Assembly: GCA_963555825.3 (NCBI GenBank)
Contig: CAUVXB020000002.1
Span: 3,360,001 to 3,424,000 of the forward strand
Length of the DNA: 64,000 bases
Source: Alphaproteobacteria bacterium
GTDB taxonomy: Bacteria > Pseudomonadota > Alphaproteobacteria > JAAXGF01
Direction: 5' to 3'
Positions 15,532 to 63,020 of this stretch are shown piece after piece. How positions within the stretch are numbered: the first letter of the stretch is position 1; every line of letters starts with the position of its first letter. The position numbers and the translations under genes are program-made. Below the pieces are notes generated by a model. That model saw only the letters and a list, made by a program, of their open reading frames with translations. It was not told where the DNA came from and did not search any database.

Positions 15532-18489
15532 ATGTATCGGGTGGAGTTGTACGCACGGGTTCGGCGGGCGTGTCATGTCGAGGGGATGAGCACCCGCGAG
15601 GCCTCGCGGGTGTTTGGTGTAGACCGCAAGACGGTCCGTAAGATGCTGTCGTTCTCGGTGCCGCCAGGGTATCGCCGAAGCGCGCCGCCGAGGCGGCCAA
15701 AGCTGGGTCCGTTCACGGGAATCATCGATCGGATCTTGGAAGACGATCGGACCAGCCACCGCAAGCAACGGCACACTGCGAAGCGCATCTTCGACCGCCT
15801 CCGGGACGAGTACGGTTTCACGGGCGGCTACACCATCGTGAAGGACTACGTTCGTGAGCAGGGGCTTCGGTCGCGTGAGGTGTTCGTGCCACTCTCCCAT
15901 TCCCCCGGTCACGCCCAGGCGGACTTCGGCGAAGCGATGGCGGTGATCGGCGGCGCGTTACGGAAGATCCACTTCCTTGCCTTCGACCTTCCCCACAGTG
16001 ATGGTTGCTTTGTTGCGGCCTATCCGGCGGAGACGACCGAAGCATTCTGCGATGGCCACAACGCGGCGTTTGCCTTCTTCGGCGGCGTCCCCCGATCCAT
16101 CCTGTACGACAACACCAAGCTGGCGGTTGCCCGGATCCTGGGCGATGGGAAGCGGCAGCGAACGCGCGTCTTCACGGAGCTTCAGTCCCACTATCTGTTC
16201 GAGGACAGGTTCGGCCGGCCGGGCAAGGGCAACGACAAGGGCAAGGTCGAGGGACTGGTCGGCTTCATCCGGCGGAACTTCCTGGTCCCCGTCCCGCGTG
16301 CCGAGAGCTTCGCGGCCCTCAACGATGCTCTCGCCGAACAGTGCCGCCGGCGCCAGGCGGCGCGGCTGCGGGGCCACAAGGAGACCATCGGCGAGCGTCT
16401 CGAGCGGGATCGTCAAGTTCTCTTGCCATTGCCGCCTGCTCCCTATGATGCCTGCGATAAGCGCCCTGGACGGGCGAGTTCGCTGTCGCTGGTGCGTTAC
16501 CGCAGCAACGACTATTCCGTGCCCGTGGCCTACGGCCACCGTGAGGTGCTCATCCGGGGCTACGTCGATGAGGTGGTGATCAGCTGCGGGGCCGAGGTGA
16601 TCGCCCGGCGATGTCCCTATCTCTGTTGAAATTCGTGGGGCAGGCGTCGCTGGTTGATGATGCTATGCTGCCTTCATGATGGTTTCAATGGCACTGTCGG
16701 CCTGAGCCTTTCTCAAGTGTTCCTGGAGAGCATTTCGGAGGATGGGCAGCTGACGATAGGCCTTGAGGCGACGGAAGGTTTTCTGGGCCTCCAGCAGGCC
16801 GGCGGCGGTCCATCTGAGCGCCATCTCGGCGTGTCTCCAGCGTTTGACGTTGCGGGTGACCTGGCGCACCGTGCCGAGCGCGTTCTCGACGATGTTGGTG
16901 CAGGCGAGCGAGCGCCGGAGTTCGTGCGGCAGGCCGAGGCGGATGACGGTGAGGATCTCGTCCAGCCCCTCCAGGATGCTGCCCGAGACGCCCGGTTCCT
17001 CATGCTCCAGACGCCGGGCCAGGTTGCGCAGCAGCCGTTCGGCCTTGTCTGCGTCGTCCTGGTCCCAGGCCTGACGGAGCGCCTTCTTGACGCTCGCATG
17101 CAAATGCAGGGGCAGGCGCTCGATGATGTTACGGCCCTTGTGGACCTGGCAGCGCTGGATGGCGGCGGCCACACCGAAGGTGTTGCGGATCGCTTTGCTG
17201 AGCGCCTTCGCGCCATCGACGATGAACAGCCGGGGCAGCGTCGGATCGAGCCCCCTGGCGAGGAGATTGTCGAGCAAGGCCTGGACGACGACAGTGTTCT
17301 CCGTCGCCCCCTCGACCACGGCCAGGACATGCTTGTCGCCGTTGCCATCGACGCCGATCGCCGCCACCAAGACATGGTCGCCGACATGCAGACCGTCGAT
17401 CTGGATGACCAGCAGGTCGAGCTCCGAGAGGTCCGAGGCGAGCCAGGCCTTCATCTTCTTGCGCGACAGCGCCACAAAGCGCCGGGAAACGGCCGACTTC
17501 GAGGTGCCGTCGCCACGCGCTTTCGCCAGGTCGCCCTCGGGCAGACGGACCGCGCGGTGGTACTTGCGGGTCGACACGTTCAGGACCATCAGGTTGAGCG
17601 CCCACTCGAGCAACAGGTTGCCGTCGCGCAGCACCTGCCAGCTCTCCAAACCCACCTCCTTGCCAGCATGGTCGCGAACCCGTGGCCGCTGCACTTTCAC
17701 GCGGCCGCCGTGGTAGCCGATCTCGCTCTGCGTATGGCCCCAGCGATAACCCCGACGGTTCCCATGGCGACGATGTCGGGCCCCGCACACGGTCGTGGCG
17801 TCCTCCTCCATCATCTCGGCCAAGGCCTCGACCCCGGCCAGGAGACAGAACCGATCCACGCTGAGACGGACTGCGTCCATCGCGTCTGCCAGCGGCGGCA
17901 TAGGAAACGAGGTGGCAAGGGCTTTCGGGCTACTGGAACTACGGATATCCTTTCCCATGGTGTCGTTCTCCCTCTTGGGTTTGCAGCACCCGGAGCCTAA
18001 CGGCTCCAGGAGAGCGACACCTACCTCAACTTTTCAACATCGACCGGGACATCTCCGATCGCCCGGCACCGCCGGTCCTACGACAGCGAGGACCTGATCT
18101 TCGACCCGCTGCATTACCTGCCCTTGATCGAGCAGAAGATCGGCGCCCTCGACCAGGCCGCGCCATTGGCGGGCTGGGACCTGCCCGAGGCCTTCATCAC
18201 TCTGCGGCGGCTCCTCGAAGCTCGTATGGGCAAGGCAGGCAAGCGCGAGTACGTCCAGGTGCTCCGTCTACTGGAGACCTTCCGGCTCGAGGAGGTCGAG
18301 GGTGCGGTCGGCGACGCCCTGCGGCTCGGCGCAATCGGCTTTGATGCGGTGAAGCACCTGGTACTGTGCCGCATCGAGCGGCGGCCGCCCAGGCTCAACC
18401 TCGACGTCTATCCGTATCTGCCGCGCGCCCGGGTCGCGATGACGTCCGCCAAGTCGTACATGAGCCTGCTGTCGGGGCTCGGCGCATGA
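15532..18489 (+). pseudogene. istA: IstA transposase split by IS256
   Basis: 15532..16606 plus 18065..18489 equal the intact 499-aa ORF 47154..48653. Confidence 0.9.
16607..18056 (-). mobile_element. IS256-family IS type 1 (transposase 16663..17958), 8-bp TSD
   Basis: TIRs GGCGATGTCCC / GGGACATCTCC; TSD GATCGCCC at 16599-16606 and 18057-18064; QIDG, VDGAKAL, QRCQVHK, TNIVE motifs. Confidence 0.92.
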
Positions 18490-19250
18490 CCGACACACCG
18501 CAAGTGCTGCTCGCCCACCACCTCAAGACGCTGAAGCTGCCGACCTTCCTGCGCGAGTACGACAAGATCGCCCGGCAGTGCGCCTCGGAAGGCGTCGATC
18601 ACGTCCGCTACCTGTTGAGACTCGCCGAGCTCGAGCTGATCGACCGCGAGCGCCGCATGGTCGAGCGGCGCATCAAGGCGGCGCGCTTCCCCGTGGTCAA
18701 GAGCCTCGACAGCTTCGACTTCAAGGTCATCCCCTCGCTCAACAAGGCGCTGGTCCTGGAGCTGGCCCGCTGCGAGTACATCGAGCGCCGCGAGAACCTC
18801 ATCGCGCTCGGCAACAGTGGGACCGGCAAGACCCACATCGCCCTCGGTCTCGGCCTGGCGGCCTGCCAGAAGGGCCTCTCGGTCGGCTTCATCACCGCCG
18901 CCGCGCTGGTCCACGAACTCATCGAGGCCCGCGATGACAAGCAGCTGCTGAGGTTCCAGAAGAAGCTCGCCACCTACAAGCTTCTGATCGTCGACGAACT
19001 CGGCTTCGTGCCGCTGTCGAAGACCGGCGCCGAGCTGTTGTTCGAGGTGTTCAGCCAACGCTACGAGCGGGGCTCGACCCTGGTCACCACCAATCTGCCC
19101 TTCGACGAATGGACCGAGGTGTTCGGCTCCGAGCGCCTCACCGGCGCGCTCCTCGATCGCCTCACCCACCACGTCAACATCCTCGAGATGAACGGTGACA
19201 GCTACAGGCTCAACCAGAGCCGCAGGCGTCAAACCCCGACTGCTAACTGA
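18486..19250 (+). CDS. istB: IstB AAA+ ATPase
   Basis: GNSGTGKT, LIVDELG, TTNLPF, LDRLTHH. Confidence 0.93.
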   Translation: MTDTPQVLLAHHLKTLKLPTFLREYDKIARQCASEGVDHVRYLLRLAELELIDRERRMVERRIKAARFPVVKSLDSFDFKVIPSLNKALVLELARCEYIERRENLIALGNSGTGKTHIALGLGLAACQKGLSVGFITAAALVHELIEARDDKQLLRFQKKLATYKLLIVDELGFVPLSKTGAELLFEVFSQRYERGSTLVTTNLPFDEWTEVFGSERLTGALLDRLTHHVNILEMNGDSYRLNQSRRRQTPTAN

Positions 19251-19441
19251 ACCGACCACCCAGCCCACGCTTGACCCCGTGGGCCCACAGGTCCCTCCCG
19301 CGCGCGCCGCCGCGTCAGCCTGTTGAGGGCACGCCGCGTCGCGCGCGGGGCCCTCCCGTGGACTACGGGGACAAGCCCGCAGCCGCCAAGCGGTCCCTTC
19401 TTACACCGCCGAGGTGGTCCCTTTTTGCTCCGCCATTGACA

Positions 19442-19855
19442 CAGGCAAGCGTTATCAGTTGGCTCAGTCTTTCGGATGCGGCTGTGCGTCAAAAGGCCCG
19501 ACACTTCCGCGGTGTCCTGGCAAAGGCCGAGGGTCAGTTGCCGCCCGATCGGCCAGGCGTGATCCATATTGGTGTTGAAAGCAACGCTGGCGCGAATGTC
19601 GATTCCCTGCGCCACATTCTCAACACTTTCCAGGCCCGCTCCTTCGCGCTACGGAATTCGCGACTGCGGTGGGTCTATGGGAACTATTTTGTGCCTGAGG
19701 CGACCACTCGAAAAGAAGAGAGTTGGGCGATCACAGAGACCATGGTGCCATATAAGATCGGATCCCACAGCACTCGCTGGCCCTTGCCTGGTCACATGCT
19801 GGTTTCACCCGAGGGCGACGGCAGGGAAGGTGTTCATTGGGATCCAGATTCCTAG
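19442..19855 (+). pseudogene. C-terminal remnant of an unknown protein
   Basis: Open frame from the IS21 end to TAG 19855 with protein-like composition; no start codon of its own. Confidence 0.4.
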
Positions 19856-19890
19856 TTACCGTGAAACGCCACGCTGGCTCAGCACGAACT

Positions 19891-21133
19891 GACGCTCTCA
19901 TGTTTGTCAAGCACTCGATGGGGCGGTGAGTACGCGGTAGATCTCGCGGGCCACGTAACGCTTCAGGCCGCGCATGATCTCGCGTTTGGACAGCCCCTCC
20001 AGGGTCCTGCGAGCGACATAGGCTCGGGTCCGCTCGTCGGTTCGCATTCGGCACACGACGACCATGTGCAGGGCGGAGTTGGCTTGGCGGTTGCCTCCGC
20101 GGTTGAGACGGTGGCGTTGCGTCTTCCCACTCGATGCGGGGATCGGGCAGACGCCGCACATCATGGCGAAGCTCGCCTCGGAGCGGAGCCGATCCGGGTT
20201 ATCCCCAACGGCGACCATTACTGCGCCTGCGTTCTCGGTGCCCACGCCTTCGAGCTCAAGCAGACTGGGGGCGAGCTCCTCGACCAAGGGGACGATGAAC
20301 CGGTCGAGTTCAGCGATCTCGTCGTTGATGTCGAGGATTCTGCGGGCGAGGGACTTCAGGGAGAGCTTGGTCGCGACCACCGGGTCTCGATAGCCGACCG
20401 TGTCCGGCCTCCAGGCCGCACAGGTACGCAGGCGCTGCATGCGGGTGAGGTTGCGGACCTGGTCACGCACTTCCTCCGGTGCGGCAACGATGGTGTTGTG
20501 GAGTTGCTGCAGGGCCGCGCGGCGGCACTTGATTGCCGTCTTTCGCGTTGTTCGCAGCACCCGCAGGGCTTCCACGGTGCCGGAACGGTCTTCGGCCACC
20601 TGGACCCGGCGTCTTGTGTGCGCCGCCTCGGCCGCGGAGATCGCATCCAGGGCGTCGTCCTTGCCCTTGGCTCTTCGGCTGGCTGGGTCCGGCCCGGTCA
20701 CCTCGAGCACGGGGATACCCGAGAGTGCCAGGTGCCGGGTGATGCCGGCTCCGTAGGTACCGGTGGATTCCACTCCTACACGAAGCAGCTCGCCATGAGA
20801 GCGGAACCAGCGAAGCATCGCCCGGTAGCCGGCTCGGGTGGTGGAGAACGATTCGGTACCAAGCACCGTTCCGTCGTGGCTCACGACGGCGGCGGTGTGC
20901 AGGTCCTGGTGGGTGTCGACGCCACCGATGATCTGGATGTTGTCGGCTGTTGTAGTCGCCATGTCCGCCCCCTGGTCTATGATGGGTGGAGGGGTTGGCT
21001 CCGAACTCAGCCGATGTCGGACACGACAGTGACGGGGCGCCCAAGGCCGGGCTCTCATCAGGTCACGATGTCGGTCGAGGTCGGAACCTCAACCGGTTGC
21101 CCCCGGGTGGCCGACATGTCCGGGGAATGACAT
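19891..21133 (-). mobile_element. IS110-family element B (complete), inserted at an AG core within the leader of IS110 element A
   Basis: No TIR or TSD; junctions CGACCG-AG-ATGTC and GAGCGTC-AG-TTCGTG in element orientation. Confidence 0.75.
19907..20962 (-). CDS. IS110-family DEDD recombinase
   Basis: GVDTH, GVESTG, KDDALDA (DEDD), SSGK serine motif, GNRQANSAL, LKRYVARE. Confidence 0.93.
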   Translation of the reverse strand: MATTTADNIQIIGGVDTHQDLHTAAVVSHDGTVLGTESFSTTRAGYRAMLRWFRSHGELLRVGVESTGTYGAGITRHLALSGIPVLEVTGPDPASRRAKGKDDALDAISAAEAAHTRRRVQVAEDRSGTVEALRVLRTTRKTAIKCRRAALQQLHNTIVAAPEEVRDQVRNLTRMQRLRTCAAWRPDTVGYRDPVVATKLSLKSLARRILDINDEIAELDRFIVPLVEELAPSLLELEGVGTENAGAVMVAVGDNPDRLRSEASFAMMCGVCPIPASSGKTQRHRLNRGGNRQANSALHMVVVCRMRTDERTRAYVARRTLEGLSKREIMRGLKRYVAREIYRVLTAPSSA

Positions 21134-21249
21134 CTCGGTCGATCTGAGTGTGGGTCAAGCCACCCAAGGGCGGCCGGCCCTATCAGTCTAGATGCGTCTA
21201 TCGCTGTGCGGGTCAGGTCACTCCGAGGGAACCGGCCCGCAGATACTCA
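20963..21249 (-). ncRNA. Candidate IS110 bridge-RNA leaders (B: 20963-21133; A remnant: 21136-21249 plus 19856-19888)
   Basis: Non-coding, multi-hairpin, upstream of an IS110 recombinase, with 8-nt matches to the insertion junctions. Confidence 0.6.
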
Positions 21250-22190
21250 CTATCGCTATGGTGGATCACACCGGCGCCAGGTTGGCGCAGCCCGATAGCA
21301 CGGTTAAGCGCCCTGAGCGGCAGGTCGCTGGTCATGCGAGCGCCCACGGCCCAGCCGATGACGCGCCGGGAGTAGAGGTCGAGCATGACGGCCAGGTACC
21401 GCCAGCCCTGTGCCGTCCAGATATAGCTGATGTCGGCAGCCCATTTCTCGTTGGGTGCCTCGGCGGAGAAGTTCTGGTCGAGAAGGTTCGATGCGACGGC
21501 CTTGTTGTGCTGGCTGTCCGTCGTCTTTTTGAACTTCTGTTTCCGTTTTGGAGACAACCCATTTCCCCGCATCAGCCGAGCCACCCTATGGCGTCCAACC
21601 TCGATCCCATTCTCGGCAAGCTCGTGATGGACCCGCTCTGCACCGTAGCTCTCGCGGCTGCGCCGAAAGGCTGCCCGGACATGGGCGAGTAGAACCATGT
21701 CATCGAGCTGTCGCTGGCTTGGGCCGCGATTGCGCCAAGCGTAGAAGCCTGAGACGCTGACCTGCAGCAGTCTGCACAGGCGGAATATCGGCATCGCCAA
21801 CCCGGCCCTCTCCGCGTCGATGAACCGGAACCTCATCGACTTTCCCTGGCGAAGAAGGCCAGCGCTTTTTTTAGCAGATCACGTTCCTGACGGGCCAGAT
21901 CACGCTCTCGGCGTAGGCGGGTAATCTCCTTCGCTGCATCCTCATGCGGACCGGAAAGCAAATCCTCCTCACGCAATTCTGCGACCCAGCGGCCGAGCGC
22001 GCTGACGCTGATCCCAAGATCTCCTGCTATCTGCCGCTGCCTGCGCCCGCTCGTCTGTAAAAGACGGACGGCTTCTTCCTTGAAGGCCCGATCAAACCGC
22101 CGGCCCTTGTTCCCATTCTGCTTCGACATTTGCACCTCCTGCGATCAAAATCCTATCGCAGGACGTCTCCACTTTCGTCAGCAGGGTCCA
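21250..22190 (-). mobile_element. IS3-family element type B, 5' part (orfA 21833..22135, orfB truncated at HHSD)
   Basis: End TGGACCCTGCTGACG; AAAAAAAG frameshift window; WAADISY, LDLYSRRVIGW. Confidence 0.9.
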
Positions 22191-51897: not shown

Positions 51898-53369
51898 GGC
51901 GGATTCAACCGGTCGTCGCAACACGTTCAGTTTGACTGGCCTGCAAGCACTGGTCCAGAGCTTCGGCGGGAGTTCTCCATCCGAGGGTCTTGCGGGGCCG
52001 TGTATTGAGCGCGTCAGCAACAACTGCGAGTACGTCCGGACTGTGTACGCTCAGATCGGTTCCTTTCGGGAAGTACTGTCGAAGCAGTCCATTGGTGTTC
52101 TCGTTCGTTCCGCGTTGCCAAGGGCTGTGCGGTTCGCAGAAGTAGACGGGAAGGCCGGTTGCGATCCGCAGATCCGCATGCCTGGCCATCTCTGCTCCCT
52201 GGTCCCAGGTCAGCGAGCGGCGAAGCTGCGCTGGCAATGTCGTGATCGTCCGGGCGATGGCATCGCGAACCGCTTCAGCCCCATGACCGGCAAGCGCAGG
52301 CCCGTTCTTCACGCGCGGGACGGTGCCGTGGCCTTCCATTCGGGGAAGATGCAGCAGCATTGTGAACCGCGTGGTGCGTTCCACCAGAGTGCCGATCGCC
52401 GATCTGCCCAAGCCGATGATCAGGTCACCTTCCCAGTGTCCGGGTACGGCCCGATCAGCTGCTTCCGCCGATCGTTCACTGATCATGATCTCAGGCGTGA
52501 CGAAGGATTTGCCCCGCCGGCGGCTACGTGCCCGAGGCACGCGCAGTGCCCTTCCCGTGCGAAGGCAGGCGGTCAGCTCACGACGGAGTGCGCCGCGGCC
52601 CTGTACGTAGAGCGCCTGATAGATCGCCTCATGACTGATCCGCATCGCTTGATCCTCGGGCCCGTCCCCAGGATAGTCGATCCGAAGACGGTGCGCGATC
52701 TGCTCAGGACTCCAGGCCCTGGCCCATCGCCTGTGCTGCCGCGGCCCATGCCGACGACCGTTCCAGACGACGCGTGGCCCCTCGATCACCGTTCCATCCG
52801 GTGCCGAGATCCGACCCGCAAGCCGATCCTGCACATAGCGCCGCAGCGCCTCATTCGTTGCCAGCTTGGCTGGCTTCGGCCTTTTGGCGGATCGATCAGC
52901 ATGCCACTGCGCCGTCGTTGCTCGGTAGTCCAGGCCACCGCTTCGGGTCGCCGCGTTGCGCCGCACCTCGCGGGAGATCGTCGACGGTGCTCGCTCCAGC
53001 CGGCAAGCAATATGACGTATGCCTCTTCCCTGGGCGCGCAGAAGAGCAATCTCCTCACGTTCCTCGAAAGACAGGTAACGTCCTGACAGCGGCTTGGCCG
53101 ATTGCGATAAATGTGATGGTGGCATGCCGCCCGACCTCCGGAACCACCTCGAGCCTACCGGAGGGGATACACCGGCATCTCGGGCCGCGTCCTCGCTCGA
53201 ACGCCCCGTCGCAATCGCTGCCCAGAACCGAACAAGCTCCTCACGCCGTGCCGAGTCCGGTCGACCTGGCGAATGCAACTTGCTCCGTCCAGACCGATCC
53301 GACCGCCGTCTGCGTACCGTCATAGCAACCTCCTATGCCAGAGTGTTGCGACGACCGATTGAACTCGCC
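51898..53369 (-). mobile_element. IS30-family IS (transposase 51905..53323)
   Basis: TIRs GGCGGATTCAACCGGTCGTCGCAACAC / GTGTTGCGACGACCGATTGAACTCGCC; CAG on both sides; WSPEQIA, GHWEGD, WDQG, NENTNGLLRQYFPK. Confidence 0.93.
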
Positions 53370-53677
53370 CAGTACTGCTCAGACGCATACCAGGCGCGCC
53401 TCGGTGAACTCGGTTTCCTCGCCTCAATGAGCGGTAAGGGAAATTGCTATGATAACGCCGTCGTCGAGACCTTCTTCAAAACCATCAAGTCAGAACTGAT
53501 CTGGAGGACTGTGTTCATGTCAAGAAGCCAAGCTGAAACTGCCATAGCCGGATACATCGATGGGTTCTATAATCCAGTCCGTCGGCACTCGACGCTGGAC
53601 TTCACAAGCCCCGTCAAATTCGAGGCAGAAGCAATGCAAACGGTGTAGGGCGCCTCCACTTTTCCTGGATGGGTCCA
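53370..53677 (+). mobile_element. IS3-family 3' part whose terminus matches type B
   Basis: QYCS...GNCYDNAVVETFF..YNPVRRHS; end TCCACTTTTCCTGGATGGGTCCA pairs with the type B left TIR. Confidence 0.8.
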
Positions 53678-59157: not shown

Positions 59158-60098
59158 TGGACCCTGCTGACGAAAGTGGAGACGTCCTGCGATAGGATTT
59201 TGATCGCAGGAGGTGCAAATGTCGAAGCAGAATGGGAACAAGGGCCGGCGGTTTGATCGGGCCTTCAAGGAAGAAGCCGTCCGTCTTTTACAGACGAGCG
59301 GGCGCAGGCAGCGGCAGATAGCAGGAGATCTAGGGATCAGTGTCAGCGCGCTCGGACGCTGGGTCACAGAATTGCGTGCGGAGGATTTGCTTTCCGGTCC
59401 GCATGAGGATGCAGCGAAGGAGATTACCCGCCTACGCCGAGAGCGTGATCTGGCCCGTCAGGAACGTGATCTGCTAAAAAAAGCGCTGGCCTTCTTCGCC
59501 AGGGAAAGTCGATGAGGTTCCGGTTCATCGACGCGGAGAGGGCCGGGTTGGCGATGCCGATATTCCGCCTGTGCAGACTGCTGCAGGTCAGCGTCTCAGG
59601 CTTCTACGCTTGGCGCAATCGCGGCCCAAGCCAGCGACAGCTCGATGACATGGTTCTACTCGCCCATGTCCGGGCAGCCTTTCGGCGCAGCCGCGAGAGC
59701 TACGGTGCAGAGCGGGTCCATCACGAGCTTGCCGAGAATGGGATCGAGGTTGGACGCCATAGGGTGGCTCGGCTGATGCGGGGAAATGGGTTGTCTCCAA
59801 AACGGAAACAGAAGTTCAAAAAGACGACGGACAGCCAGCACAACAAGGCCGTCGCATCGAACCTTCTCGACCAGAACTTCTCCGCCGAGGCACCCAACGA
59901 GAAATGGGCTGCCGACATCAGCTATATCTGGACGGCACAGGGCTGGCGGTACCTGGCCGTCATGCTCGACCTCTACTCCCGGCGCGTCATCGGCTGGGCC
60001 GTGGGCGCTCGCATGACCAGCGACCTGCCGCTCAGGGCGCTTAACCGTGCTATCGGGCTGCGCCAACCTGGCGCCGGTGTGATCCACCATAGCGATAG
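59158..60098 (+). mobile_element. IS3 type B 5' part, copy 2 (orfA 59213..59515, orfB to HHSD)
   Basis: Inverted duplicate of 21250-22190 with the same break point. Confidence 0.9.
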
Positions 60099-60486
60099 TG
60101 AGTATCTGCGGGCCGGTTCCCTCGGAGTGACCTGACCCGCACAGCGATAGACGCATCTAGACTGATAGGGCCGGCCGCCCTTGGGTGGCTTGACCCACAC
60201 TCAGATCGACCGAGATGTCATTCCCCGGACATGTCGGCCACCCGGGGGCAACCGGTTGAGGTTCCGACCTCGACCGACATCGTGACCTGATGAGAGCCCG
60301 GCCTTGGGCGCCCCGTCACTGTCGTGTCCGACATCGGCTGAGTTCGGAGCCAACCCCTCCACCCATCATAGACCAGGGGGCGGACATGGCGACTACAACA
60401 GCCGACAACATCCAGATCATCGGTGGCGTCGACACCCACCAGGACCTGCACACCGCCGCCGTCGTGAGCCACGACGGAACGGTGCT
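60099..60486 (+). mobile_element. IS110 A and B leaders plus start of recombinase B (ATG 60386), cut by IS21
   Basis: Inverted duplicate of about 20862-21249. Confidence 0.8.
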
Positions 60487-63020
60487 TGTCAGAACGGCAG
60501 AGCAATAATCCCCCACTGAAGCGGCCGGTCGATCCGGCTGCGGCGGACCAAAATGGGACCGCGTATAGCCTTCTGTCAGGGTTGCTCTGACTGGAAGGCG
60601 GGGGGGATGTATCGGGTGGAGTTGTACGCACGGGTTCGGCGGGCGTGTCATGTCGAGGGGATGAGCACCCGCGAGGCCTCGCGGGTGTTTGGTGTAGACC
60701 GCAAGACGGTCCGTAAGATGCTGTCGTTCTCGGTGCCGCCAGGGTATCGCCGAAGCGCGCCGCCGAGGCGGCCAAAGCTGGGTCCGTTCACGGGAATCAT
60801 CGATCGGATCTTGGAAGACGATCGGACCAGCCACCGCAAGCAACGGCACACTGCGAAGCGCATCTTCGACCGCCTCCGGGACGAGTACGGTTTCACGGGC
60901 GGCTACACCATCGTGAAGGACTACGTTCGTGAGCAGGGGCTTCGGTCGCGTGAGGTGTTCGTGCCACTCTCCCATTCCCCCGGTCACGCCCAGGCGGACT
61001 TCGGCGAAGCGATGGCGGTGATCGGCGGCGCGTTACGGAAGATCCACTTCCTTGCCTTCGACCTTCCCCACAGTGATGGTTGCTTTGTTGCGGCCTATCC
61101 GGCGGAGACGACCGAAGCATTCTGCGATGGCCACAACGCGGCGTTTGCCTTCTTCGGCGGCGTCCCCCGATCCATCCTGTACGACAACACCAAGCTGGCG
61201 GTTGCCCGGATCCTGGGCGATGGGAAGCGGCAGCGAACGCGCGTCTTCACGGAGCTTCAGTCCCACTATCTGTTCGAGGACAGGTTCGGCCGGCCGGGCA
61301 AGGGCAACGACAAGGGCAAGGTCGAGGGACTGGTCGGCTTCATCCGGCGGAACTTCCTGGTCCCCGTCCCGCGTGCCGAGAGCTTCGCGGCCCTCAACGA
61401 TGCTCTCGCCGAACAGTGCCGCCGGCGCCAGGCGGCGCGGCTGCGGGGCCACAAGGAGACCATCGGCGAGCGTCTCGAGCGGGATCGTCAAGTTCTCTTG
61501 CCATTGCCGCCTGCTCCCTATGATGCCTGCGATAAGCGCCCTGGACGGGCGAGTTCGCTGTCGCTGGTGCGTTACCGCAGCAACGACTATTCCGTGCCCG
61601 TGGCCTACGGCCACCGTGAGGTGCTCATCCGGGGCTACGTCGATGAGGTGGTGATCAGCTGCGGGGCCGAGGTGATCGCCCGGCACCGCCGGTCCTACGA
61701 CAGCGAGGACCTGATCTTCGACCCGCTGCATTACCTGCCCTTGATCGAGCAGAAGATCGGCGCCCTCGACCAGGCCGCGCCATTGGCGGGCTGGGACCTG
61801 CCCGAGGCCTTCATCACTCTGCGGCGGCTCCTCGAAGCTCGTATGGGCAAGGCAGGCAAGCGCGAGTACGTCCAGGTGCTCCGTCTACTGGAGACCTTCC
61901 GGCTCGAGGAGGTCGAGGGTGCGGTCGGCGACGCCCTGCGGCTCGGCGCAATCGGCTTTGATGCGGTGAAGCACCTGGTACTGTGCCGCATCGAGCGGCG
62001 GCCGCCCAGGCTCAACCTCGACGTCTATCCGTATCTGCCGCGCGCCCGGGTCGCGATGACGTCCGCCAAGTCGTACATGAGCCTGCTGTCGGGGCTCGGC
62101 GCATGACCGACACACCGCAAGTGCTGCTCGCCCACCACCTCAAGACGCTGAAGCTGCCGACCTTCCTGCGCGAGTACGACAAGATCGCCCGGCAGTGCGC
62201 CTCGGAAGGCGTCGATCACGTCCGCTACCTGTTGAGACTCGCCGAGCTCGAGCTGATCGACCGCGAGCGCCGCATGGTCGAGCGGCGCATCAAGGCGGCG
62301 CGCTTCCCCGTGGTCAAGAGCCTCGACAGCTTCGACTTCAAGGTCATCCCCTCGCTCAACAAGGCGCTGGTCCTGGAGCTGGCCCGCTGCGAGTACATCG
62401 AGCGCCGCGAGAACCTCATCGCGCTCGGCAACAGTGGGACCGGCAAGACCCACATCGCCCTCGGTCTCGGCCTGGCGGCCTGCCAGAAGGGCCTCTCGGT
62501 CGGCTTCATCACCGCCGCCGCGCTGGTCCACGAACTCATCGAGGCCCGCGATGACAAGCAGCTGCTGAGGTTCCAGAAGAAGCTCGCCACCTACAAGCTT
62601 CTGATCGTCGACGAACTCGGCTTCGTGCCGCTGTCGAAGACCGGCGCCGAGCTGTTGTTCGAGGTGTTCAGCCAACGCTACGAGCGGGGCTCGACCCTGG
62701 TCACCACCAATCTGCCCTTCGACGAATGGACCGAGGTGTTCGGCTCCGAGCGCCTCACCGGCGCGCTCCTCGATCGCCTCACCCACCACGTCAACATCCT
62801 CGAGATGAACGGTGACAGCTACAGGCTCAACCAGAGCCGCAGGCGTCAAACCCCGACTGCTAACTGAACCGACCACCCAGCCCACGCTTGACCCCGTGGG
62901 CCCACAGGTCCCTCCCGCGCGCGCCGCCGCGTCAGCCTGTTGAGGGCACGCCGCGTCGCGCGCGGGGCCCTCCCGTGGACTACGGGGACAAGCCCGCAGC
63001 CGCCAAGCGGTCCCTTCTTA
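60487..63020 (+). mobile_element. IS21 type A, copy 3 (istA 60607..62106, istB 62103..62867), right end cut by IS630
   Basis: Same proteins as copy 2. Confidence 0.92.

Follow-up and report, generated by a model that had tools for sequence, protein, structure and literature searches.

A single ISEc21-like IS110 element and its leader, with a candidate second left-target guide, in an interrupted IS3 transposase gene

A 64,000-nucleotide (nt) stretch of an Alphaproteobacteria bacterium assembly (contig CAUVXB020000002.1, positions 3,360,001 to 3,424,000; hereafter the window) holds an insertion sequence (IS) of the IS110 family lodged in the transposase gene of an IS3-family element, together with a second copy that keeps only its 5' part. 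The long non-coding leader in front of the recombinase gene raises a simple question: is it the bridge-RNA gene of one element, or the leader of one element interrupted by another? A sequence-only reading of the window had chosen the latter, with an IS110 element "B" inside the bridge-RNA leader of a recombinase-less IS110 element "A", and B guided against the leader of A. Our analysis instead indicates, at a probability of roughly 0.9, that window positions 19891–21251 on the minus strand are a single autonomous ISEc21-like RNA-guided IS110 element and that the two-nested-element reading is wrong. The leader is one conserved unit that appears to hold two alternative left-target guides, and the paralogy of the modules that carry them is probably the source of the apparent two leaders.

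One element and one leader

The recombinase, P0001, combines a DEDD RuvC-like N-terminal domain with a C-terminal Tnp domain (PF01548 DEDD_Tnp_IS110, 3.9e-24; PF02371, 3e-17), scores 177.3 bits against NF033542 "IS110 family RNA-guided transposase" (cut-off 140), and is 55% identical over 335 amino acids (aa) to the ISEc21 transposase annotated on an E. coli plasmid. With these domains and the 288-nt non-coding region upstream of the gene, the earlier assignment to the IS110 family with a bridge-RNA-like leader is confirmed. No terminal inverted repeats were found between the element ends by reading. Both ends are common to six full-length copies in the genome and 33 relatives, as established by BLAST of the region against the genome and by alignment, and contigs of other samples break at exactly 19891 and 21252; the limits of the element are thereby directly supported. 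The limit at 19891 is the last C of ...CATGAGAGCGTC, and that at 21251 is the AG preceding TGAGTAT. The span first proposed, 19856–21260, was roughly right, with exact ends that are narrower (Table 1).

BLAST of the region against the genome returned, besides the six full-length copies, one truncated copy and two fragments. An IS3 left flank precedes five of the six; the sixth, C1:404198–405569, lies outside IS3, with the junctions ...ACCATTCAGAT-AG|TGAGT...GCGTC|CGCGGATC (here and below, the bar marks the break point). It starts with TGAGTAT and ends with GCGTC as the IS3-borne copies do, and it still has the complete "A" part, so the mobile unit begins at the left end of "A". In the second window copy, on the plus strand, unrelated sequence sets in at 60489 and is followed from ~60608 by a frame that reads as an IS21-like istA.

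A scan for relatives, limited to one genome per species, gave 68 loci at 41–99% protein identity. All 33 full-length relatives among them (69–99% nucleotide identity, several phyla) can be aligned without a break between left junction and right end, and in every one the whole 288-nt leader is colinear; the unity and conservation of the leader are thus observed directly. No copy beginning at the proposed start of B (ATGTCATTCC, 60215) occurs among the six full genome copies, these 33 relatives and 86 leaders. Of the 49 loci with enough upstream sequence for a leader comparison (40 distinct leaders aligned), only L021 does not have the "A" part in place, its leader being interrupted by an IS256-like element with the remainder 1.37 kb upstream. 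That interruption (L021:925–2290), a genuine insertion within a bridge-RNA leader, is due to an IS of 1.37 kb whose transposase frame of 411 aa is IS256/mutator-like by reading; the IS is flanked by a 9-base-pair (bp) duplication (CGCCCCTGG) and cuts the 5' strand of the target-loop closing helix.

Parts "A" and "B" always occur as a pair, which moves and folds as a unit; B is thus no parasite of the guide-RNA gene of A, nor does a second element begin at 60215. There being no separate A element, no recombinase of A is missing. The proposed A|B boundary (60214|60215) separates the left-target from the right-target guide of a single IS3 site and is also straddled by a covarying helix. The left end of "A" has a homologue in the left end (TGTGAGTAT) of relatives that have a single-module leader and belong to the same recombinase lineage (44–47% protein identity). 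Nesting does account for the 8-mer TCGACCGA on both sides of the proposed junction, for repeated leader modules that resemble two leaders, and for the non-IS3 right flank of the window copy. However, a search for the rejoined site gave no match at up to 3 mismatches in the genome and 229 loci (7.1 Mb); the flank TTCGTGCTGAGCC, in which A was thought to resume beyond the right end, is unique in the genome, and other copies have other right flanks. The target proposed for TCGACCGA does not exist. We therefore regard insertion of one IS110 element into the leader of another as highly improbable, and the headline idea of an element aimed at another element's guide-RNA gene is not borne out.

The motifs on which that idea was built are nonetheless all where they were said to be (Table 1), including the IS3 orfB break AGCGAT-AG|TGAGT at 60091–60103, and two of them were upheld as guides: AGCGATAG, within the segment 60140–60150 that copies the IS3 left flank, and ATGAGAGC, a donor guide whose match to the right end is real and covaries between subfamilies. 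As to the accompanying caution that 8-nt matches can arise by chance, the 288-nt leader contains five identical 8-mer pairs where dinucleotide shuffles give 1.38, and a count of five is attained in 45 of 1000 shuffles. TCGACCGA is one of three internal repeats, and a guide role for it is not assessable by covariation because the stretches in which it sits hardly vary among relatives. Two other candidates were rejected. ACTCA as a right-donor guide stays unchanged when the left end changes in L022, L023, L028 and L052 (alignment by eye), and ACTGATAG as a donor guide has no match to the right end and falls within a variable hairpin.

Target codons and insertion junctions

The truncated IS3 orfB (PF13276 and PF00665 rve) is interrupted at ...CAC CAT AGC GAT AG|TGAGT; the outer end of this IS3 element, near 22180, was judged by eye against the plus-strand copy at ~59170. 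The empty site, CCATAGCGAT|CGGGGAAGCC (longer form CACCATAGCGAT|CGGGGAAGCCAG), is present in sister genomes: in two of them, 12 of 14 IS3 copies are uninterrupted at the insertion point and the other two hold the element. Comparison of filled with empty sites, in which ...AGCGAT|CGGGGAAG... becomes ...AGCGAT-AGTGAGT...GCGTC-CGGGGAAG..., agrees with the earlier claim that target duplication is absent. RNA-library contigs (4 runs, 3 studies) contain the empty site in all four runs and the filled right junction GCGTC|CGGGGAAGCC in two, and a third run joins the right end to another IS3-like gene; these contigs yielded no circle junction and no informative ends, uncovered parts being uninformative. 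The genome of the window holds no intact copy of the interrupted IS3, all six orfB stretches up to the Asp codon running into an IS110 element. Forty related genomes likewise gave no useful match for intact IS3 copies, the intact ones coming only from the two sister genomes found via the loci.

The relatives point to the same codons. Their left flanks encode HHSD, NTD or HAD in mostly rve genes, their right flanks (R/Q/N)G(S/A)Q(Y/F), and the left boundary is GAY-AG|TGAGTAT in 33 of 33 full-length relatives. The target is thus the coding sequence for His-(Ser/Thr)-Asp | (Arg/Gln)-Gly of rve-type (IS3-family) transposases, with insertion right after the second catalytic Asp codon; target site and empty site are both directly supported, and the sequence-only reading had named this codon region correctly. 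No rve-like frame was found at the sites of L001, L004, L006 and L009; the serine positions at these four and at C1:404198 are AGC, AGT, TCA, AGC and TCA, respectively.

A common AG core had also been proposed. AG holds for the donor side only, whereas the IS3 target has CG at that place. The left junction dinucleotide, always that of the donor, is AG in 55 of 58 distinct sets and TG in three, and that of the right junction is mostly the target's own (CG, CA, AA, others, sometimes AG). Staggered cuts around a shared core, as outlined for IS621 (PMC11208158), would give both junction outcomes, of which only one is seen; a simple shared-core model would thus leave the asymmetry unexplained.

Right flanks differ between copies. 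Of the five copies preceded by IS3 sequence, two (that of the window and C2:750318–748907) have unrelated DNA directly after GCGTC-AG, which suggests half-site (one-sided) recombination or later rearrangement; the right flank of the window copy is absent from the 40 related genomes apart from one weak 27-nt match. Half-match recombination by IS110 elements is treated in a preprint (10.64898/2026.08.14.744561). Flanks of a similar AG+T form occur at L002, L011, L017 and L018. Another preprint reportedly also concerns half-match recombination by IS110 elements. At L015 and L016 the left flank CATGAGAGCGAAT-AG resembles the element's own right end CATGAGAGCGTC-AG, which suggests that a donor-like site was the recombination partner of the element here.

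Such flanks bear on whether the copies are independent insertions. Some or all of the IS3-borne copies in this genome could have arisen by duplication of one IS3::IS110 composite or by later rearrangement: the IS3 left flank is identical over at least 100 nt in five of the six full copies and in the truncated one, the genome has no intact IS3 copy, and unrelated right flanks stand directly after AG in two of those five copies. We consider this unlikely, as C1:404198–405569 lies outside IS3, a right-end fragment sits in a different IS3-like gene (C2:2745747, ...GCGTC|CGGGACTCGCAGTAC), and dozens of different rve genes in other genomes are interrupted at the same codon.

A second, unrelated IS (ends GGCGAGTTCAATCGGTCGTCGCAACAC...) stands in the same IS3 gene 10 bp downstream of the IS110 site, after GGGGAAGCCAG, in seven of the 12 otherwise uninterrupted IS3 copies of the two sister genomes and also in the window genome (Table 1), and may be another site-specific inserter into this motif region. 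Both IS110 copies of the window are flanked by IS21-like istA/istB copies (18366–19440 and 60489–63000), and the window as a whole is a tightly packed patchwork of insertion sequences, IS3, IS110 and IS21 among them.

Guides of the leader and a candidate second left-target module

A single-sequence fold of the leader was no better than shuffles (z = -1.65), so alignments were relied upon. RNAalifold on 27 distinct leaders gave partly different outer pairings, and a separate helix set was tested instead. On these 27 leaders the closing helix of the target-binding loop comprises 22 pairs, 11 of which are changed on both sides, with pairing in 87.5% of cells; none of 500 shuffles attains the values observed for the tested structure as a whole, and in slid controls 31–45% are paired. 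The loop runs in the order closing helix, GAC, 5' guide, 3-bp hairpin (with one compensatory change), 3' guide and GUC.

Covariation of three guides, like that of the closing helix, is observed directly. The left-target guide of the loop (module 2) follows its own flanks more closely than shuffled ones, 0 of 20000 shuffles reaching the observed match on the 27 leaders and again on 57 distinct two-module site/guide sets. These sets include family members from metagenome contigs; a metagenome scan with a 17-nt donor-loop motif gave 118 stretches, ~45 of them family members by eye and the rest chance matches, and a scan with a 27-nt left-end string gave no match. As to the right-target guide, the loop sequence changes along with the target from one subfamily to another, reading CUGCCCUG for CAAGGCAG in ISEc21 and AUUGCGUU for AA-TGC at the CWD|NA motif in the L043 group. 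In the donor-binding loop, the left-donor guide equals the right-end 8-mer in four subfamilies, each with its own sequence: that of the window element, AGAAGGGC in ISEc21, AUAGGAGC in the L043 group and AGUAGGAGC in the L050 group. The right-donor guide pairs at 6/6 in 26 of 27 leaders and changes together with the left end in L013, L023/L036 and L052/L062, which with UCACUG makes four compensatory types (the others being UCCCUG/GGA, UUACUG/TAA and UGACUG/TCA). Modules 1 and 2 were each tried as left-donor guide and rejected, since the invariant right end does not share their variation.

Over its first third the leader is paralogous to the 5' half of the target loop, and GGGCCGGUUCCCUCGGAGUGACCUGACCCGCAC-AGCGAU-AG can be aligned with GGGCCGGCCGCCCUUGGGUGGCUUGACCCACAC-UCAGAU-CG. 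The guide segment of this third (module 1) matches the IS3 flank CATAGCGAT at 8/9 and the non-transposase sites L001 and L009 at 9/9; with own flanks against shuffled ones, 17–30 of 20000 shuffles reach the match on the 27 leaders and 231 of 20000 on the 57 sets. A match of at least 8/9 is attained by module 1 in 14 of the 57 sets, by module 2 in 32 and by either in 46, and in two sets neither reaches 7. Perfect 9/9 fits belong to module 2 in L025, L031, L022 and L052, and to module 1 in L018, L033, L023, L062 and L182. An AGN-type module 1 (AGC, AGT or AGA) is combined with a TC-type module 2 at 29 sites, and there the module that fits goes with the serine codon: module 1 suits all nine AGY sites and module 2 all 17 TCN sites, and the three with other codons are divided between module 1 (two) and module 2 (one). 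Near-identical copies of the window element occur in both the AGY and the TCN class. L144 has three tandem left-target modules of Thr, AGC and TCT type (AACACUGAU-CG, AACAGCGAU-UG and AACUCUGAU-CG), and its site AATACCGAT-TG fits the first of them. The module-1 scaffold strand is moreover complementary to the 3' strand that closes the target loop (-26.1 versus -23.1 kcal/mol shuffled; 0 of 20000 shuffles as low).

On the basis of this flank covariation, the site-class split, the three-module leader of L144 and the scaffold complementarity, we propose alternative 5' halves that share one right-target guide. The tandem 5' halves, of which most members have two and L144 has three, would carry different left-target guides, the guide being chosen by mutually exclusive pairing, and the resulting multiplexed bridge RNA would cover the AGY-Ser, TCN-Ser and ACC-Thr spellings. 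We put the odds of this arrangement at about even. Alternatively, module 1 may be the decaying relic of a partial tandem duplication, with module 2 alone guiding and mismatches at the serine codon tolerated. Module 2 indeed sits in an IS621-like internal loop with the right-target guide, a partner that module 1 lacks; in 40 of 57 sets it is module 2 that matches better; some lineages have an aberrant module 1; and minimal ISEc21 seekRNAs work without the 5' region (PMC11187229). A relic fits less well with the 14 of 57 sites at which module 1 matches at least 8/9 while module 2 has 2–4 mismatches, with two unrelated non-transposase sites that match module 1 at 11/11 (ACACAGCGATAG versus the guide's GCACAGCGATAG), and with Thr-type and Ser-type assignments that swap between modules by lineage (L017 and L033 versus L022 and L031), both being matched to real sites. 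We take the relic to be quite possible, while leaning against it.

Several observations weigh against a guided single element with alternative guides and temper our reading. The shuffle tests ignore the relatedness of the sequences, and the scaffolds of modules 1 and 2 are alike within lineages, so that gene conversion could be the source of apparent covariation. The module 1 of several lineages is unlike any observed site and looks decayed (...AUGUU-AG in L022, L040, L118 and L157); in the ISEc21 copy the stretch 5' of the target loop has no clear copy of module 1 by eye, and a 58-nt seekRNA is enough for ISEc21 movement, as stated in PMC11187229. Within the subfamily the right-target guide is no better than shuffled pairings (2053–2103 of 20000 shuffles), because all targets share GGG. 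The left-donor guide is invariant within the subfamily and lies 3 nt plus the dinucleotide from the crossover, unlike in IS621. The window copy is no clean insertion, since its right flank is not IS3. Lastly, RNA ends, a circle junction and activity were not seen in the RNA-library contigs, which cannot reveal transcription.

We infer the following scheme for the ends of the transcript, for the chemistry of recombination and for the part played by module 1. By analogy with IS621 and ISEc21, the element would be excised as a circle. When the ends are joined through AG, TTGACA of the right end comes to stand 17 bp from GAGTAT of the left end, both conserved (by reading); TTGACA could be the -35 box of a circle-junction promoter, a junction promoter being known for the IS110 family (PMC11208160 and PMC11187229). 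This ...TTGACA-N17-GAGTAT... promoter would yield a ~230-nt bridge RNA from the 288-nt leader and then serve the recombinase gene. In the bridge RNA, the closed target-binding loop would present module 2 and the right-target guide, and the donor-binding loop the left- and right-donor guides. The 5' third of the leader, formerly "leader A", would supply module 1 as second left-target guide, and the two 5' halves would compete for the single 3' half, which may let one element address the AGY-serine and TCN-serine (in relatives, Thr) spellings of the same protein motif. Insertion itself falls right after the second catalytic Asp codon and splits the transposase gene without target duplication.

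Table 1. Features of the IS110 element, its leader and its surroundings (window coordinates unless a contig or locus is named).
Feature	Position	Strand	Remark
Complete IS110-family (ISEc21-like) element	19891–21251	-	1,361 bp including left AG (21250–21251)
Recombinase gene, 351 aa (P0001)	19907–20962	-	Pfam, NF033542, ISEc21 identity
Leader (bridge-RNA gene), 288 nt, between left end and ATG	20962–21249	-	equals 60099–60386 (+)
Right end CTTGACAAACATGAGAGCGTC, with TTGACA (19905–19910) and left-donor site ATGAGAGC	19891–19911	-	near-invariant in 34 aligned right ends
Right junction AG (19889–19890), then flank neither IS3 nor element	19856–19890	-	flank TTCGTGCTGAGCC once in genome
IS3-family element, left part; orfA 21833–22135; orfB 5' part to Asp codon 21252–21254	21252–22180	-	Pfam, sequence reading
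Second copy, 5' part only (AG, leader, first 102 nt of recombinase gene)	60097–60488	+	BLAST match 60048–60488
Module 1 left-target guide CACAGCGAU-AG, AGC-serine version of His-Ser-Asp codons	60140–60150	+	minus copy 21198–21208
Target-binding loop domain, closing helix 60171–60189 with 60237–60255	60171–60255	+	encloses A|B boundary 60214|60215
Module 2 left-target guide CACUCAGAU-CG, TCA-serine version	60198–60208	+	minus copy 21140–21150; L006 flank 9/9; C1:404198 8/9
Right-target guide UUCCCCG	60221–60227	+	exact reverse complement of CGGGGAA (target dinucleotide and right flank), 7/7 to empty site
Left-donor guide AUGAGAGC	60290–60297	+	identical to right-end positions -11 to -4
Right-donor guide UCACUG	60316–60321	+	reverse complement of C-AG-TGA at circle junction
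Motif of sequence-only reading, AGCGATAG	60143–60150	+	
Motif of sequence-only reading, ACTGATAG	60161–60168	+	
Motif of sequence-only reading, ACTCA	60199–60203	+	
Motif of sequence-only reading, TCGACCGAG	60206–60214	+	
Motif of sequence-only reading, TCGACCGA	60270–60277	+	
Motif of sequence-only reading, ATGAGAGC	60290–60297	+	also 19894–19901 (-)
IS with ends GGCGAGTTCAATCGGTCGTCGCAACAC	53340–53370; C1:230100–230133 and 228651; L084, L088, L094, L097, L098, L100, L109		

Relatives and known systems

Elements of the ISEc21 kind are widespread, with relatives in assemblies of Alpha- and Gammaproteobacteria, Gemmatimonadota and Actinomycetota and in sponge-associated samples, and the targeting of relatives has shifted to several conserved transposase-gene motifs. 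L043, L045, L046 and L053 (44–47% protein identity) have a single-module leader of ~210 nt. L045 and L053, whose donor dinucleotide is TG, occupy another conserved motif of IS3 orfB (G-D/N-C/S-W/Y-D | N-A); L046 has another flank, the contig of L043 stops at the element, and the L050/L051 group has yet other targets.

That IS110 elements disable IS3 transposase genes is real and already published for ISEc21; the candidate novelty may lie in the multi-guide leader, with its second left-target module 5' of the target-binding loop. A text search of the literature, with supplementary files outside its scope, found a second or additional target-binding loop or a second left-target guide in no paper on IS110 or bridge RNA. 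If functional, interchangeable left-target guides would be a natural way for one bridge RNA to reach several related targets, with consequences for multiplexed designs and for the question of how degenerate targets are tolerated or encoded by bridge recombinases. One element would then recognise synonymous or near-synonymous spellings of the catalytic His-Ser/Thr-Asp in many unrelated transposase genes.

The closest known system is ISEc21, which is aimed at the codons surrounding the second Asp (D) in the DDE motif of IS3, requires an upstream non-coding RNA and makes no target duplication (Siddiquee et al. 2024, Nat Commun, PMC11187229). The window element shares with it a recombinase 55% identical, the upstream non-coding region, the absence of duplication, the target codons, and a bottom-strand match placed 5' of the top-strand match. 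The ISEc21 copy on the E. coli plasmid has like junctions (TTCCACAGCGAT-AG|TAATAAT, that is GCGAT-AG|TAATAAT, and GGGCGTC|CAAGGCAG) and homologous target (CACAGCGAU-CG ... CUGCCCUG) and donor loops. The two elements differ in that they are only about half identical, with donor guide and right end reprogrammed (AGAAGGGC in ISEc21 versus AUGAGAGC here); moreover, the available text of PMC11187229 describes one target-matching pair, and a second left-target guide is not clear in the ISEc21 copy examined.

IS621 (Durrant et al. 2024, PMC11208160; Hiraizumi et al. 2024, PMC11208158) is alike in its DEDD/RuvC plus Tnp recombinase and in a 5' leader RNA, predicted for the window element, with two internal loops, each with a 5' guide in top-strand sense and a complementary 3' guide; its junction promoter, split between right and left ends, has a putative counterpart here. 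It has a shared CT core, in contrast to donor AG versus target CG, CA or AA here, and its target is a repetitive extragenic palindromic (REP) sequence, not a protein-coding motif. In the window element the left-donor guide pairs 5 nt from the crossover and there is an extra left-target guide module. The sequence-only reading was right that the layout departs from that of IS621, but the cause is this extra module. No Rfam family matches the leader here (0 covariance-model matches at E up to 10 over 19700–21400).

Site-specific DEDD insertion sequences that insert into other mobile elements are also found in the IS1111 family. IS4321 and IS5075 belong to this different family branch, with a downstream non-coding region and subterminal inverted repeats, and their targets are terminal repeats of Tn21-type transposons instead of a coding motif.

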